Notes under the pieces: generated by a model
Told to the model about the DNA's origin: nothing
What the model saw: the letters and a program-made list of their open reading frames with translations, nothing else
The model's database searches: none
From: a virus
IMG/VR virus record: IMGVR_UViG_3300009826_000008
Location: 1-44,206 of that record
Direction: 5' to 3' (one strand)
DNA: 44,206 nucleotides
Program-made: the position numbers and the translations under genes
In this document: in pieces, positions 3,065 to 9,291 of the stretch
Numbering within the stretch: position 1 is the stretch's first letter
Layout: each line of letters starts with the position of its first letter

Positions 3065-3541
3065 ATGCAGATTTCAAAAGGAAAGCGACTAATAGGCGAA
3101 CTTGAGCGTGCTTTTGCTAAATACAACGGACATAGAGAGGCAGACGAACGTATCAGCTCAGCCCTTCGCGATATTGAAGAAGCTATTGACCGAGTTGGAC
3201 AGATGAGCGCATCCGTCTACACTATCGCGCACCAGAAAGAGAGCGATGAGTGGGGAATCATGAGTCAATCAGAAGGGCACAGATTAGCACTCAAGCTCAT
3301 GAATGTGTCAAGGGCTTCAATGCTTCTTGGTGGTGTAGAACAAGAGCTAATCGATGAGTCATACAACGCAGTAGTAGAAGCCATAGACGGTGAGACGTGT
3401 GAGCGAGTTCGTGACCACGACAGCGACAGTTATGAGTTTTTTTATATCTGCTCACAGTGCAAATATCGCAGTTTATGTGACACTCACAACTACTGCCCTA
3501 GATGTGGATCTCAGATAGTAGGTGATAGTGATGATGCTTAA
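3065..3541 (+). CDS. Zinc-ribbon protein; the C-terminal 93 aa is a paralog of 8974..9291
   Basis: From internal M66, MSQSEGHRLA...AVVEAIDGETCE...C(P/A)xCGxxIVGDxDD aligns with ORF 8974..9291. The two share a 38-nt exact repeat, and this gene also shares a 24-nt exact repeat with dnaB. Confidence 0.75.
   Translation: MQISKGKRLIGELERAFAKYNGHREADERISSALRDIEEAIDRVGQMSASVYTIAHQKESDEWGIMSQSEGHRLALKLMNVSRASMLLGGVEQELIDESYNAVVEAIDGETCERVRDHDSDSYEFFYICSQCKYRSLCDTHNYCPRCGSQIVGDSDDA
3186..3209. repeat. 24-nt exact repeat shared with dnaB (13991..14014)
   Basis: ttgaccgagttggacagatgagcg occurs at both sites. Both copies are in frame and encode DRVGQMS. Confidence 0.95.
3367..3404. repeat. 38-nt exact repeat shared with 9096..9133
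   Basis: cgcagtagtagaagccatagacggtgagacgtgtgagc is identical at both sites, and the flanking bases differ. Confidence 0.95.
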
Positions 3542-3651
3542 ATACTTTAAGCAAAAAAGATGCAGACATAACGATGAGTCTTGGGCGCACAACGGGGTTA
3601 GATGGATATACACATGCAATAAGTGTGGCAATATCAGAAGAGGATAACAGC

Positions 3652-4968
3652 ATGGCTAAAGGACACTATAGTTTAAGTAAATCCCAGATAAATCGAGTGA
3701 AGGACGAGCTTGAACACTTTTTCTGGCATGAATGCGACATGGAAAAAGAGAGCCTATACCTTGATAATATGCTAGGTGTCTGGATGCGGAATAAGCAGCA
3801 CTTATTTAACGCTCTCTCGCAATCAGAGCACTGGGATAACGAAAAGTTAGCATTGGTGGGTGAGTCAGAATACACCTTTAACCTTGAAGATTATAGTGAG
3901 CTGAAAACAATCGCAAACCTCTTTATAGTGGGCATAGATCGTGAAATTTTGACGGCATTAAGCACTGGCAAGAACATCGTTGGTCAAATTCTCTTTGATT
4001 ATCTGATGAATCTTGGACTTGAATGTCTTGGTGACGCTGTTGCCCGTAAACTATCGCCAGACATGAAGCTCAGCAAGCTAATAAGGTTGTTATATGAAAA
4101 TAATATAGGCGTGTGTCCTTCTTTACATGTGGGCACTAAAGTCTTTGACGGGCTATTAAGTTCTGGATTTCAGAAGCTGAGCGATAATCAGAAAGCGCGG
4201 GGATATCTTCTGCTGTCCCTGCATCCATACTGTTATTTGACAATGAGCGATGGCAGTCACTGGGACAGCTGTTACCAAGTGTCAAGGGATGCTGATTACA
4301 GCAATGGCGCATTCAATGCTATGCAGGACAATGTATCAATGATTGGCTATACAACGAATGATAAAAACCGAATGATAAAAACATCCAGAACCTGTGTTGT
4401 ATCTGGCGATGGTGTTAACTTTGCGGCATATCATAGTTATCCAGAAATTAGTACAAGAGATAAACTCAGGAGGCTAGTAACAACATTTGCGGACGTTTTA
4501 CCGCAGACCATTCATAGTGGATATCGCTCTAAAGTGACAATGAATACGACAAACACTCAAACATCGGAACATTCGAGTCATTACGATTACTCAGACCGTA
4601 GGATGATTGTTGCAGTAAGTGATAGTGTCAAAAATGGCATAGTTAACGAGCGATGGAATGTTAAAAATCAAGATGATACTTACTTTGGTGCTAAGGGTGG
4701 GCGACTGCTGAGCGGCAGAGGCTGGAAGCTAGAAAGAGAGCGTGCTGCCAATGAAGTATGCGCAAGGTGTAACAATGATGTAACTAATCAGAGAAAGAAG
4801 ATTAGGGGTCATTACAGCGGGGAATATAAGTGGTATTGTAACGATTGCTATGTGGTTCGCACGTCAGTGTGTTCGTTATGTGGTGAGATTGTTAATGACA
4901 GCATGACAAGAATCATAGACGGTACAGTGTATCATTACGTTTGCTATGGGAAACATATTGGGGGGTAG
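3652..4968 (+). CDS. Large hypothetical protein, paralog A of 6964..8274, with a C-terminal multi-CxxC zinc-finger region
   Basis: Start 3652 (GAAGAGGA RBS) is preferred over 3574 because it matches the N-terminal spacing of paralog B. Shared blocks are LGVWMRNKQHLF~LEVWWHNKQRLI and SLHPYCYLTMSDGSHWDSC..DYSNGA~SVNPVDFLTHAHGDRWGTC..DYNSGA. Confidence 0.75.
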   Translation: MAKGHYSLSKSQINRVKDELEHFFWHECDMEKESLYLDNMLGVWMRNKQHLFNALSQSEHWDNEKLALVGESEYTFNLEDYSELKTIANLFIVGIDREILTALSTGKNIVGQILFDYLMNLGLECLGDAVARKLSPDMKLSKLIRLLYENNIGVCPSLHVGTKVFDGLLSSGFQKLSDNQKARGYLLLSLHPYCYLTMSDGSHWDSCYQVSRDADYSNGAFNAMQDNVSMIGYTTNDKNRMIKTSRTCVVSGDGVNFAAYHSYPEISTRDKLRRLVTTFADVLPQTIHSGYRSKVTMNTTNTQTSEHSSHYDYSDRRMIVAVSDSVKNGIVNERWNVKNQDDTYFGAKGGRLLSGRGWKLERERAANEVCARCNNDVTNQRKKIRGHYSGEYKWYCNDCYVVRTSVCSLCGEIVNDSMTRIIDGTVYHYVCYGKHIGG

Positions 4969-4970
4969 CA

Positions 4971-6455
4971 ATGGGTGTGTTGACTTATAATGCAAGCACA
5001 AAAGACTATCGTGGGAATTGCATACGCTGCAACTGCGACATAAGGCACTACACTTATCTAAAAGACGCAGAATGTGAAACATGCTTTGAAAAGGATTGGG
5101 TATCGTGTCGACATTGTGGAAAATATTACGAAGAAGGCAAGATAGATGAAGTGTGTGCCATTTGCATGGCAGAAGCATTAAGGCTTGCGAATGAACATGT
5201 TGACACGATATATCACATGACAATGGCAGGTGACTTCAGCAGCATGGAGCAGTGCTTAGAGTTACTGCTGGGAATGAGCGAGCCTGCAATGATGGCTATT
5301 CTCAGGGGATTGCTACCTAAATATGGTTACAATACACTAGAAGTGGGCAATGACTTCACCTTTGCAAGGGGCTATAAATCTAACTCTATGCTCGTTGCTC
5401 ACATTGACACAGTGTTTTCTAGGAAGCCAAAGCCAGAAGACATCATAAGGAATAAGTATCAATGGTACACATCTTTCGGGATTGGTGGTGATGATAGATG
5501 TGGAGTATTGATGAATCTATGGATTATCGCAGAGCATGTTAAGAATCATGGAAGTAGACCAGCTGTTTTGTTTACAGACCTTGAAGAGACGGGATGTGTT
5601 GGAGCTCTCGAGTTTGCTAGATGGATTGAGCGTCCAGAGAATAGTGATAAGTGGGATACTCCAGCCCACATGATTGAGTTTGATAGGCGAGGCTGTTCAG
5701 AGGCAGTATACTATGACTGTGCTAATGAAGCATTCACTAGGTGGGTCGAGGGTTTTGGGTGGGAAACGAAAAGTGGTAGCACATCAGATATCGTACATAT
5801 CGCAGAGCCTATGGGTTGTGCAGCTGTCAATATATCTGCATGCTACACTAACCAACACACAGTAAGCGAGAAAATATACACAAACTTTCTTTTCAAAAAC
5901 ATACAGACCGCACTAGAAATGACACTTGATGACCAAACATACTTTAAGTGGGTAGAGGCTGTTTCTAATGTATCACTACATTACAGAAATTACTCATCAA
6001 ACAGATGGAGTAAATACGGGCACAGCTATTTTGCCTCAAGCTGTGAAGAGGAAGAAGACAACAATAAAGCAACAGTTGACTACTTTGGCACAGATAAATG
6101 TTATTATGGTGTCAATGGTTCACATACTGTACCAGCCAAGCATTGTATGCATGGTGGTTGCCACATGAGGGACTGCATCCACTGGTGCAATAGTGGTAGT
6201 AAAAAAAAAGAGTCAAGCGAAGAAGGGGAAGATAGCTCAAGGCTGTTTGAGCTAGAGCATGATATATGCTTTACCTGTAATGGCGCAGGATGCATTGATT
6301 GCCACTTCGGATATGAAGAGTTAGAAGATACTCAATCAAGTGGATTTGACCCAGACGAATGTTTATCAATTGCAATGCAATCATTCGCTTGCAACCAGTG
6401 TGACAATAACAACTGTCCAGCAAATGACCATCACAATCATGAGACAGATTGCTAG
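4971..6455 (+). CDS. MH-clan (M28/M42/M20-like) co-catalytic zinc metallopeptidase flanked by Cys/His-rich domains
   Basis: ATG at 4971 follows GGGGGG. Metal-ligand-like motifs occur in the canonical order: VAHIDTV, GGDDRCG, DLEETGCVGA, YTNQHT. The N-terminus has CxxC pairs and the C-terminus is Cys/His-rich. Confidence 0.6.
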   Translation: MGVLTYNASTKDYRGNCIRCNCDIRHYTYLKDAECETCFEKDWVSCRHCGKYYEEGKIDEVCAICMAEALRLANEHVDTIYHMTMAGDFSSMEQCLELLLGMSEPAMMAILRGLLPKYGYNTLEVGNDFTFARGYKSNSMLVAHIDTVFSRKPKPEDIIRNKYQWYTSFGIGGDDRCGVLMNLWIIAEHVKNHGSRPAVLFTDLEETGCVGALEFARWIERPENSDKWDTPAHMIEFDRRGCSEAVYYDCANEAFTRWVEGFGWETKSGSTSDIVHIAEPMGCAAVNISACYTNQHTVSEKIYTNFLFKNIQTALEMTLDDQTYFKWVEAVSNVSLHYRNYSSNRWSKYGHSYFASSCEEEEDNNKATVDYFGTDKCYYGVNGSHTVPAKHCMHGGCHMRDCIHWCNSGSKKKESSEEGEDSSRLFELEHDICFTCNGAGCIDCHFGYEELEDTQSSGFDPDECLSIAMQSFACNQCDNNNCPANDHHNHETDC

Positions 6456-8743: not shown

Positions 8744-8752
8744 GTATAAATC

Positions 8753-8971
8753 ATGATTTGTCCACAAATAAGTAAACCAAATGAAGCTATTATGTGCAGC
8801 GATGGACTCGTGTATTACGCTGGCAGTTCACCTAAAAACGAAAATAGGTGCGCGTGGTGGGACAGCGACCGCGAATGTTGCGGGATGTTGCCAATGCAAA
8901 ACAAAAGCTCAGAGTGGGCTAGGAATAGGATAGCCGAACTTGAGCACAAGTTAGCCAAGATGAAGGAGTAG
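8753..8971 (+). CDS. Cys-rich hypothetical protein (72 aa)
   Basis: Compact spacing to both neighbouring genes. Confidence 0.55.
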   Translation: MICPQISKPNEAIMCSDGLVYYAGSSPKNENRCAWWDSDRECCGMLPMQNKSSEWARNRIAELEHKLAKMKE

Positions 8972-8973
8972 TT

Positions 8974-9291
8974 ATGAGTCAATCAGAAGGACATAGGTTA
9001 GCAGGTAATCTTGAGCTGGCAGCCCGTGGCTATGAGCGCAATTTACAAAGTCACACGTCAATGAAGAGAGCGGAATTGCTGAGCACAGCCTACAGCGCAG
9101 TAGTAGAAGCCATAGACGGTGAGACGTGTGAGCTAGACTTGCCAGCGTTTCTTATTTCGAGCGATATGCCAGAAGTAGCGCACTGTAGAGAGTGCAGACA
9201 TCTAAATATAGCAGACGTTGGATTTGGGATGGCTAGGTCAAAATATTGCGCAGGTTGCGGCTGTCGAATAGTAGGTGATGGTGATGATTAG
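8974..9291 (+). CDS. Zinc-ribbon protein, paralog of the C-terminal part of 3065..3541
   Basis: AAGGAG RBS. The shared N-terminus MSQSEGHRLA, the AVVEAIDGETCE block and the CxxC...CxGCGCRIVGDGDD tail match the paralog. Confidence 0.75.
   Translation: MSQSEGHRLAGNLELAARGYERNLQSHTSMKRAELLSTAYSAVVEAIDGETCELDLPAFLISSDMPEVAHCRECRHLNIADVGFGMARSKYCAGCGCRIVGDGDD
9096..9133. repeat. 38-nt exact repeat shared with 3367..3404
   Basis: Identical 38-mer within the paralogous genes. Confidence 0.95.

Follow-up and report, generated by a model that had tools for sequence, protein, structure and literature searches.

A widespread phage module, not described before, that pairs a new protein family with a predicted PepT-like hydrolase

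The window analysed here, a stretch of viral DNA of 44206 nt, contains a block of genes on the plus strand in which two large related proteins lie on either side of a peptidase, with a small zinc-ribbon protein at each end. The block was predicted to occupy 14% of the window, which is correct (6227 of 44206 nt), and all nine of its open reading frames are found at the coordinates originally assigned to them. The arrangement raises the question of whether these genes form a multi-component system, as was originally proposed, and if so what such a system might do. Below, FAM denotes the family of the large paralogs and PEP the peptidase; the gene order in the window is FAM-PEP-FAM, with two very divergent FAM paralogs.

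According to a survey of gene neighbourhoods, what lies at the centre of this block is one instance of a gene module that occurs in many phages and has not been described before. At 68 of 73 other FAM loci, a PEP homolog is present directly downstream of FAM and on the same strand. The median spacing between the end of FAM and the start of PEP is 9 nt, with no more than 100 nt in 66 of 70 cases; the window copy has 2 nt between the stop codon of the first FAM gene and PEP. The two genes are probably translationally coupled. Four of the five loci that lack PEP are cut by a contig end, and among the 73 loci no FAM without PEP was seen where downstream DNA was present. PEP occurs without FAM in Lactococcus phage P087, Bacillus phage pW2, Brevibacillus phage Jenst and an Aquificae virus. 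The commonest layout among the 68 loci is FAM-PEP (45 loci), followed by FAM-PEP-FAM (14) and FAM-FAM-PEP (6), with FAM-PEP-FAM-PEP (2) and FAM-FAM-PEP-FAM (1) being rarer; Enterococcus phage EF1 has FAM-PEP-FAM plus a third FAM. The PEP proteins of the loci with FAM-PEP fall into about 20 clusters that share less than 70% identity, and the loci range from phage EF1 to metagenome-assembled genomes of Clostridia and Saccharibacteria. Since the motifs used to retrieve the loci came from one subfamily of FAM, and one gut metagenome supplied many of the loci, the number of independent lineages is nearer 20 than 73.

With FAM and PEP adjacent and co-directional at 68 of the 73 loci, the block is best read as containing a multi-component unit. 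Two outcomes had been named beforehand as refuting the proposed system, a lack of co-occurrence in other genomes and a housekeeping assignment of the large proteins, and neither was observed. The support concerns FAM and PEP. Membership of the zinc-ribbon pair, the 131-residue protein and the small open reading frames is not supported, as none of them has homologs beside the module at other loci; since they have no counterparts elsewhere, they appear to be lineage-specific additions. A further point against their membership is that 9 of the 28 small early genes of the window phage encode CxxC mini-proteins.

The two large proteins in the window, Large A (438 residues, 3652..4968) and Large B (436 residues, 6964..8274), are indeed paralogs, with 26% identity over approximately 220 residues (BLASTP, E = 2e-9). 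The similarity is confined to approximately residues 35–290; their C-terminal parts are unrelated, that of Large A containing CxxC zinc fingers and that of Large B none. The start of Large A at ATG 3652 is preceded by a GAGGA ribosome-binding site and is, judged from the sequence, a better start than the ATG at 3574 chosen by gene callers, which has no Shine-Dalgarno sequence. The sequence motifs previously quoted for the pair are real, except for the spacing of the first, which is VW-x-x-NKQ-x-L (VWMRNKQHL and VWWHNKQRL), with two residues rather than one between W and N.

These proteins, which the original note could not place in a characterised family, belong to a large uncharacterised one, FAM. 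A profile made from Large A and Large B alone retrieves 658 cluster representatives when the threshold is E ≤ 1e-3, of which 41 reach E ≤ 1e-10. Members of FAM have a helical N-terminal region, a core, and then usually a C-terminal LIM-like zinc-finger array. The core is approximately 170 residues long and α/β, with near-invariant, enzyme-like polar residues S..P.D...S.G..W.SC(H) ... D ... K..R ... YP ... Y.D, or in fuller form S..[NH]P.D[YF]..MS.G..W.SC ... D ... K..R ... YP ... Y.D. The N- and C-termini are variable around this conserved internal core. Searches of FAM proteins with Pfam, NCBIfam and PADLOC gave no match to the core, and the zinc fingers excepted, no relative was found in the PDB by sequence or by fold; structure matches in BFVD are to uncharacterised phage proteins only, and the fold gives no functional clue. 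The zinc-finger array is common but not universal, with at least four CxxC motifs in 62 of 100 FAM proteins. The tails match LIM and double zinc-ribbon (DZR) domains weakly (best E = 1.2e-5 against the PDB), with marginal scores that reflect cysteine spacing. The only catalogued families containing FAM proteins are phrog_18912 and phrog_29713, which carry no annotation and whose records contain neither the link to PEP nor the family-wide motifs. The former matches a 335-residue FAM protein of EF1 at 4.8e-176 and Large A, in the motif region, at 7.7e-5; Large B matches neither.

Within Large A (AlphaFold2 model, pLDDT 70.7), the helical N-terminus contains VWxxNKQxL, and the conserved core lies at approximately nt 4195–4590 (residues 182–313), comprising SLHPYCYLTMSDGSHWDSC ... 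K243, R246, Y263-P264 and Y311-D312. Its LIM-like CxxC fingers, at approximately nt 4756–4944 (residues 369–431), are the part that gives the weak LIM and double zinc-ribbon matches, which do not cover the core. The core of Large B lies at approximately nt 7555–7968 (SVNPVDFLTHAHGDRWGTC ... YP ... Y-x-D). Both copies retain the core residues S, P, G, W, C, K, R, YP and Y.D, and both lack the usual His after the core Cys. Large A has Cys at D194, an Asp that is 99% conserved in FAM; Large B departs from the consensus at S199 and D226, with Ala in place of a Ser. Because conserved core residues are missing, one or both of the window copies could be catalytically dead.

It had been suggested, as a guess, that the large proteins are related to PcfJ. 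This can be rejected: in Pfam, neither Large A, nor Large B, nor any of 50 FAM members matches PcfJ (PF14284) at E ≤ 1, the hhalign probability is 0.3%, and PcfJ-like BFVD models turn up only at Foldseek E ≥ 2. Both groups are large proteins of phages and mobile elements, often with zinc ribbons, and share no sequence or profile similarity. In MT840058 a PcfJ protein is encoded directly upstream of FAM, and PcfJ-type PHROGs recur among the neighbours of FAM loci. PcfJ-like proteins are thus occasional neighbours of FAM, not homologs.

PEP (494 residues, 4971..6455) had been assigned to the MH clan, and both a PepT profile match and invariant active-site residues bear this out. Profiles and conserved residues predict a lid-less, PepT-like di-zinc hydrolase of the M20/M28 type. 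The catalytic domain, at approximately nt 5328–5960, contains H144, D146, D174/D175, E205-E206, D238 and H296, all of them (both residues of each pair included) invariant among 22 PEP sequences, and the motifs AHxDTV, GGDDRCG, EExG, DR and GYxxxH. PEP thereby has the five metal ligands, and the catalytic Glu beside a ligand Glu, that the MH clan requires. Against the PDB, the PEP profile matches 3gb0 (PepT) at 2.2e-17, 3rza at 1.3e-16, CPG2 at 7e-8 and the M42 peptidase TET1 at 6e-6. It covers both halves of the catalytic domain of peptidase T/M20B (3gb0, 3rza, 1fno), and its invariant His, Asp, Glu-Glu, Asp and His correspond to the PepT ligands His78, Asp140, Glu173/174, Asp196 and His379. 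The window sequence by itself matches phrog_34186 at 4e-32, but falls below the Pfam gathering cut-offs for PF01546 and PF04389 (17.0 and 16.9 bits, compared to 24.6 and 21.3); on these searches it is a divergent MH-clan member, which only profile and PHROG comparisons recognise.

PEP differs from PepT in several respects. The canonical M20 lid/dimerisation domain is missing: between chain residues 163 and 318 of 3gb0 the aligned query moves on by just 33 positions, and thus PEP has approximately 33 residues where PepT has approximately 155. The window PEP is also unusual in having an N-terminal double CxxC ribbon (approximately nt 5019–5168) and a Cys/His-rich C-terminal tail (approximately nt 6042–6452), extensions that PepT does not have, and PEP is encoded in phage early regions, usually coupled to FAM. 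We consider it to be a zinc exopeptidase or amidohydrolase with an intact predicted active site.

The distribution of zinc fingers bears on how the two proteins may work together. The median number of CxxC motifs is seven in FAM and zero in PEP. In the window this pattern is reversed, with three and zero in the FAM copies and seven in PEP, and in EF1 it is partly reversed. As the array is normally carried by FAM but by PEP in the window, a complex of FAM with PEP is suggested; no fusion of the two was found among 164 family proteins. We propose, with moderate confidence, that the observations as a whole are best explained by a FAM-PEP module that acts as one unit, probably as a physical complex. 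PEP would be the hydrolytic effector, acting on a protein or peptide in the infected cell by taking off a terminal residue or an acyl group, and the diversified, multi-copy FAM subunits would be its obligate partners, which might either select the target by means of the zinc-finger array or perform a preceding cysteine-dependent step.

A tentative alternative, which we regard as possible but rather less likely, is that the module belongs to a small-molecule pathway, with FAM as a new enzyme of transferase or ligase type and PEP acting as a deacylase or amidohydrolase like ArgE, DapE or LysK. What the pair makes or destroys would then be no protein but a metabolite, for instance a modified nucleotide or an amino-acid conjugate, or else a signal used in host immunity or quorum sensing. 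The M20 family contains many non-peptidase small-molecule amidohydrolases (ArgE, DapE, LysK, CPG2), and CPG2 is among the PDB matches of PEP, although the best of these matches are tripeptidases. The enzyme-like invariant polar residues of FAM, and the presence of PEP without FAM in several phages, are also consistent with such a pathway. However, the LIM-like arrays on FAM, or on PEP in the window, suggest binding to a macromolecule, and the surroundings of the module contain no further conserved biosynthetic gene.

The zinc-ribbon proteins of the window bring to mind one such pathway. In the LysW/LysK system, a small zinc-ribbon protein with an acidic C-terminal tail is paired with an M20 hydrolase, which sets the product free; ZR-A (158 residues, 3065..3541) and ZR-B (105 residues, 8974..9291) end in the acidic tails IVGDSDDA and IVGDGDD, superficially like the LysW carrier protein. 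The likeness is by analogy only. Membership of that system can be rejected, in that the window has neither a LysW-type Pfam match nor an ATP-grasp ligase, and zinc-ribbon homologs are missing from every other FAM-PEP locus.

As predicted, ZR-A and ZR-B are paralogs (41% identity, E = 4e-17), and appear to have arisen by local duplication. ZR-B aligns with ZR-A only from the internal Met66 onward (MSQSEGHRLA, nt 3260), so ZR-A has an extra 65-residue N-terminus; the internal ATG at 3260 has a G-rich ribosome-binding site of its own. The 38-nt exact direct repeat reported within these genes is present at 3367..3404 and 9096..9133, encodes (Y)xAVVEAIDGETCE, and lies within a 46-nt block of 96% identity. 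The window contains no third copy, and 100 rounds of shuffling produced no match. Gene conversion is a plausible cause of the patchy identity between the two genes, the repeat included.

The two copies of the repeat, 5729 nt apart, bracket the whole FAM-PEP-FAM block, and the module might accordingly be a mobile or easily lost cassette, which entered at a zinc-ribbon gene and left the two ZR copies as recombination scars through which it can be deleted. That the direct repeats flank exactly this block, and that the ZR copies are patchily similar with conserved synonymous sites, would fit such a history. We nevertheless think it unlikely: a comparable flanking repeat (at least 25 nt) occurs at none of 78 other loci, and no relative of the window phage was found, with or without the cassette. 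It would in any case describe the history of the module rather than its function, and is compatible with joint action of FAM and PEP.

More doubtful still is the idea that FAM is the substrate or regulated cargo of PEP, for example a toxin, an effector or a pro-protein that PEP would have to trim at one end in order to activate or inactivate it. The tight coupling of the genes, the several diversified FAM copies per PEP, and the one-way dependence, in which FAM comes with PEP but PEP also occurs alone, could all be read in this way. However, it is the core of FAM that is conserved and not the termini, and maturation by an exopeptidase would be unusual for a protein of 400–800 residues with variable ends. 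Least probable, and already disfavoured, is that FAM and PEP form no functional unit and are neighbours only through synteny inherited among related phages, the window block being a mixture of unconnected early genes with a local duplication among them: many of the loci are related and from one metagenome, and the neighbourhoods are otherwise unconserved, but order, strand and adjacency persist at PEP identities of 22–32% amid wholly different surrounding genes, the pairing spans 140-kb Enterococcus phages, 45–170-kb gut phages and the 44-kb window phage, and the zinc-finger array has been swapped between FAM and PEP.

The position of the FAM-PEP module offers some indication of its role. Genes for an exonuclease, a DnaB helicase and a phosphoesterase lie downstream on the same strand. 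Because the module precedes these replication genes, within a block of unknown small genes, a function in early host takeover or counter-defence is suggested, its timing being read from gene order only. PADLOC protein models gave no match to Large A, Large B, PEP, the 131-residue protein or six FAM members, a result that says little about counter-defence, as PADLOC covers defence rather than anti-defence systems.

The remaining genes of the block are small. The 131-residue protein (6516..6911), encoded between PEP and Large B in the local operon, is an ORFan: it matches nothing in Pfam, PHROGs, NCBIfam or PADLOC, retrieves only itself among 5.8 billion proteins, and is unrelated to the recurrent FAM-PEP neighbours elsewhere. 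Downstream of Large B are open reading frames of 56 residues with two CxxC motifs (8348–8518), 53 residues and hydrophobic (8582–8743), and 72 residues (8753–8971). The C-terminus of the last resembles the N-terminus of ZR-A, with a 16-nt repeat at 3092–3107 and 8930–8945.

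The two large proteins of the block, Large A (3652–4968, + strand) and Large B (6964–8274, + strand), belong to a large family of phage proteins, here called FAM, whose genes are tied to that of a recognizable enzyme with a predicted intact active site: the M20-type peptidase of clan MH, PEP, encoded between them at 4971–6455 (+). All of the open reading frames originally listed for the block are present in the window. Large A and Large B are indeed paralogous (26% identity over approximately 220 amino acids, E = 2e-9), the likeness being limited to roughly the first 290 residues, and the motifs quoted for them are correct, except that the first reads VW-xx-NKQ-x-L. 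CxxC fingers are found at the C-terminus of Large A and are absent from Large B. The start of Large A is placed at the ATG at 3652, which is preceded by a GAGGA ribosome-binding site; no such site precedes the ATG at 3574, the choice of automatic gene callers.

Neither protein matched Pfam, NCBIfam or PADLOC, and the functionally uncharacterized family phrog_18912 was matched weakly by Large A. With Large A as the query, a word-index search of 5.8 billion proteins returned only the protein itself, and the same type of search with a 45-sequence alignment of the FAM core returned no homologs. An exhaustive HMMER search with a profile built solely from the N-terminal 300 residues of Large A and Large B identified 658 cluster representatives (clusters at 50% identity) at E ≤ 1e-3, and 41 at E ≤ 1e-10. 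These proteins range from 230 to 880 residues in length. Ten members were looked up by exact sequence and were unnamed in every source, and a Pfam search of 50 members at E ≤ 1 matched no family apart from zinc ribbons. The matches in genome assemblies all come from metagenome-assembled genomes (Clostridia, Bacillota or Saccharibacteria) on contigs that are short or phage-like, so that the family looks phage-borne; FAM is confined to phages and phage-like contigs, where it has undergone paralog expansion and fast divergence. The suggestion that the large paralogs are PcfJ-like was not borne out: there is no match to PF14284, and hhalign against a bona fide PcfJ protein gives a probability of 0.3%. 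Proteins with a PcfJ domain (PF14284; phrog_8470, 7484, 3169) are nevertheless recurrent upstream neighbors of FAM genes, non-homologous to FAM, at 237–2105 of locus L001, at 626–2638 of L063, and in about 3 of 20 diverse loci.

The FAM core contains the block S-[VI]-[NH]-P-x-D-[YF]-[LI]-x-M-S-x-G-x-S-W-x-S-C-[HQ], followed in order by (GCY)..G..SYM.D, K..R(Q) and LQSR.YP and, some 45 residues later, by Y-x-D-[YW]. Within it, Ser, Pro, Asp, Ser, Gly, Trp, Ser, Cys, Asp, Lys, Arg, Tyr-Pro and Tyr-x-Asp are 95–100% conserved. The polar invariant residues, which include one invariant Cys, are enzyme-like. Near-invariant positions are altered in the window, where D194 is replaced by Cys in Large A and S199 by Ala in Large B, and the His that usually follows the Cys is missing from both; because of these deviations one or both of the window copies could be non-catalytic. 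The core profile found no relative in the PDB. The AlphaFold2 model of Large A, made with 50 homologs, has an overall pLDDT of 70.7, rising to about 90 in the core and the N-terminal helices; a Foldseek search with this model gave no PDB match at E ≤ 1e-3, and in BFVD it matched only uncharacterized phage proteins (from EF1-type Enterococcus phages, Dickeya phage JA29 and Agrobacterium phage Atu_ph07). Visual inspection of the motifs suggested likenesses to the thymidylate synthase motif (NP.D...PCH), the HPN-Cys loop of E2/UBC proteins, the Cys-His-Asp triad of OTU or papain-like proteases, PD-(D/E)xK nucleases and clan CD peptidases; these were rejected because spacings or conserved residues do not fit and because the Foldseek search gave no PDB match at E ≤ 1e-3.

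The description of PEP as a peptidase of the MH clan proved right. As a single sequence it scores under the Pfam gathering cut-offs for M28 and M20; it matches PHROG peptidase families well (4e-32), and its profile matches the PepT-type M20 tripeptidases 3gb0 (2e-17) and 3rza (1e-16) in the PDB, as well as CPG2 and the M42 TET peptidases. In an alignment of 22 homologs the residues H144, D146, D174, D175, R176, E205, E206, D238, R239 and H296 are invariant, and they match the metal ligands and catalytic residues of MH-clan enzymes. As judged from sequence, the hydrolase site is intact. In the profile alignment the two halves of the catalytic domain are both covered and the M20 lid domain is passed over, and PEP is thus predicted to be a lid-less and probably active di-zinc exopeptidase or amidohydrolase.

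The link between the two families was seen in Enterococcus phage EF1, reached from weak tblastn matches, in which the gene upstream of a FAM homolog encodes a homolog of the window peptidase (32% identity, E = 2e-33). We retrieved 61 viral loci and 10 loci from genome assemblies with a FAM subfamily alignment, and scanned all of their open reading frames with the FAM and PEP profiles. In this set, which leaves out the window's own contigs and is biased towards the subfamily used for retrieval, 68 of the 73 FAM-encoding loci also encode PEP, showing the co-occurrence of large paralog and peptidase on which the original prediction depended; in four of the other five, the sequence ends less than 400 nt past FAM. 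The PEP gene follows FAM on the same strand; the median distance between the two is 9 nt, and the distance is at most 100 nt in 66 of 70 cases. The operon is conserved and probably translationally coupled. The most common arrangement is FAM–PEP (45 loci), followed by FAM–PEP–FAM (14), FAM–FAM–PEP (6), FAM–PEP–FAM–PEP (2) and FAM–FAM–PEP–FAM (1). The order in the window (Large A, PEP, a 131-residue protein, Large B) is of the FAM–PEP–FAM type, as is that of EF1, where a third FAM copy heads the same operon. The EF1 locus (L081, MF001358.1, 19048–25471) encodes FAM proteins of 623, 399 and 335 residues and one PEP, all annotated as hypothetical; their genes open a leftward operon divergent from nrdD.

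About 20 clusters of PEP sequences, below 70% identity to one another, are represented, and the genes around the pair are wholly different between lineages. Simple inheritance of synteny therefore does not account for the pairing. Dependence is one-way: PEP occurs without detectable FAM in Lactococcus phage P087, Bacillus phage pW2, Brevibacillus phage Jenst and an Aquificae virus, while FAM without PEP was not seen in the surveyed loci. In pW2 (L065, NC_071043.1) a gene annotated as ocr-like anti-restriction is followed, two genes downstream, by the stand-alone PEP homolog, a single case that is consistent with an anti-defence neighborhood. In five gut-phage loci (L003, L006, L051, L053 and L061) a reverse transcriptase gene (RVT_1, 6.8e-21) lies a few kb from the module and may be part of a diversity-generating retroelement; by eye, a gene resembling a tyrosine recombinase is present in several of the five as well.

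CxxC pairs are abundant in the C-terminal tail of most FAM members (median 5.5, n = 164), and the tails give weak LIM-type matches in the PDB (best E = 1.2e-5). In a comparison of the two families, FAM has a median of 7 CxxC motifs, with at least four in 62 of 100 proteins, and PEP a median of 0 (n = 74). In the window the counts are reversed, the FAM copies having 3 and 0 and PEP 7, and in EF1 they are partly reversed. The zinc-finger array is thus mobile, being exchangeable between FAM and PEP, and its presence on either polypeptide is as expected for subunits of one complex. No FAM–PEP fusion was found among 164 family proteins. An early protein of a freshwater podovirus, annotated as an "amidoligase" (L080, MW202733.1, 1926–3482), has an N-terminal zinc-finger array that is 34% identical to the C-terminal array of one FAM protein (E = 4e-5), and the array therefore looks like a module shuffled among phage early enzymes. 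We rejected this protein as a parallel system, since it has nothing but the zinc-finger region in common with FAM and the gene downstream is not a PEP homolog.

It is very likely that FAM and PEP make up a functionally linked unit. We propose that they form a complex in which PEP would be the hydrolytic effector and FAM an obligate, diversified partner, which might select the target or carry out a preceding cysteine-dependent step, the complex acting on the termini of proteins or peptides early in infection. We give this statement as a whole an even chance of being correct; within it, a role in host takeover or counter-defence is put forward tentatively. A more ambitious version, which we consider rather unlikely, is that FAM–PEP represents a new class of two-component protein- or peptide-processing machine of phages, with FAM steering PEP early onto host proteins or immune components. 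In that case FAM would be a new fold whose cysteine motif serves catalysis or target binding and whose zinc-finger arrays are interchangeable units for targeting, PEP would be a stripped-down M20 exopeptidase, and several FAM paralogs per phage, as in the window, would widen the target range. The main rival is that the pair belongs to a small-molecule pathway, which arises because many M20 enzymes are deacylases; we regard it as unlikely. A morphogenetic (prohead) protease can be dismissed, as the PEP gene is located among the early genes, a long way from those of the capsid, and PEP is of the wrong family.

Searches of Pfam, NCBIfam, PADLOC, the PDB and the searchable literature yielded no account of FAM or of the FAM–PEP pairing, and the only existing entries are unannotated PHROGs; in particular, no description of the module was found in the literature on PcfJ-like proteins and on M20 peptidases in phage anti-defence. 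The PEP half is a variant within a known kind of enzyme, and no known kind accommodates the FAM half or the module taken as a unit. The strict and asymmetric gene linkage offers a concrete start for giving function to a block of viral dark matter, and the hypothesis is directly testable because culturable carriers exist (Enterococcus phages EF1, EF5, H1 and VRE9). Should it turn out to trim or modify host proteins or immune signals, the module would represent a new enzymatic strategy for host takeover or counter-defence and a new protein fold with a conserved cysteine center; a metabolic pair would still define a new enzyme family.

The other proteins of the block, namely the 131-residue protein (6516–6911), the zinc-ribbon proteins ZR-A (3065–3541) and ZR-B (8974–9291) and the three small open reading frames (8348–8971), had been counted as components of the same system. 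They have no homolog in any other locus and are not counted here as components of the conserved module. Profile comparison of these proteins with the recurrent neighbors in other loci gave probabilities of at most 2.2%. The 131-residue protein is an ORFan, returning only itself from 5.8 billion proteins in the word-index search, and a degenerate pattern for the conserved zinc-ribbon peptide AVVEAIDGETCE found nothing in IMG/VR or JGI metagenomes. CxxC mini-proteins are frequent in the early region of this phage: at least two CxxC are present in 9 of the 28 genes of up to 160 residues between 1391 and 17286 (+), for example at 1391–1576, 2780–3061, 8348–8518, 9394–9669, 9889–10170, 10367–10588 and 17089–17286 (all +). 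That a zinc-ribbon gene lies beside the module therefore says little about partnership. The idea that the zinc-ribbon proteins act as LysW-like carriers was rejected, since Pfam does not support it and conservation of the module does not extend to these proteins.

ZR-A and ZR-B are paralogous, as had been proposed (41% identity, E = 4e-17), with ZR-B matching ZR-A only from the internal Met66 onward. The internal ATG at 3260 retains its own G-rich ribosome-binding site. The extra N-terminus of ZR-A (3065–3259) resembles a fused remnant, the C-terminus of a gene like the 72-residue open reading frame (8753–8971) that precedes ZR-B; the two share a 16-nt repeat (3092–3107 and 8930–8945) and the matching peptides RLIGELE and NRIAELE. 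The 38-nt exact direct repeat is real and confined to its two sites (3367–3404 in ZR-A and 9096–9133 in ZR-B), which enclose the entire FAM–PEP–FAM block. Flanking direct repeats were rejected as a general feature of the module, as a long one occurs in the window alone and none in the other loci. The duplication is a mosaic of three highly conserved blocks (the start region MSQSEGHRLA, the 38-nt run, and the C-terminal ...IVGD(S/G)DD) separated by essentially unalignable sequence. Synonymous sites are identical in the second and third blocks, a pattern in keeping with patchy gene conversion or with constraint on the nucleotide sequence.

The window is a phage genome of approximately 44 kb without a close relative, the best match of its large terminase being only 28% identical. 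A 44,212-bp metagenome contig in ENA carries the same sequence, and a Logan contig carries part of it. Megablast of the block against 50,697 GenBank phage records gave no match, and no relatives of the phage were found in IMG/VR and JGI metagenomes. The + strand carries the genes of about the first 17.9 kb, in the order small open reading frames, the block, and then an exonuclease, a DnaB-type helicase, a metallophosphoesterase and a thioredoxin, and the − strand carries the structural genes. Where the late strand begins, a single open reading frame of 2237 residues (17977–24690, −) occupies about 15% of the genome. Just upstream of the block, a 77-residue open reading frame (2056–2289, +) consists almost wholly of Gly-Tyr/Asn/Asp repeats (GNGYGNGYGYGNGYGDGDGYGDGYG...), encoded by a tandem 6/12/18-nt repeat of GGC, TAT and GAT units at 2097–2284; linkers rich in Tyr, Gly and Asp are present in several PEP homologs of other loci.
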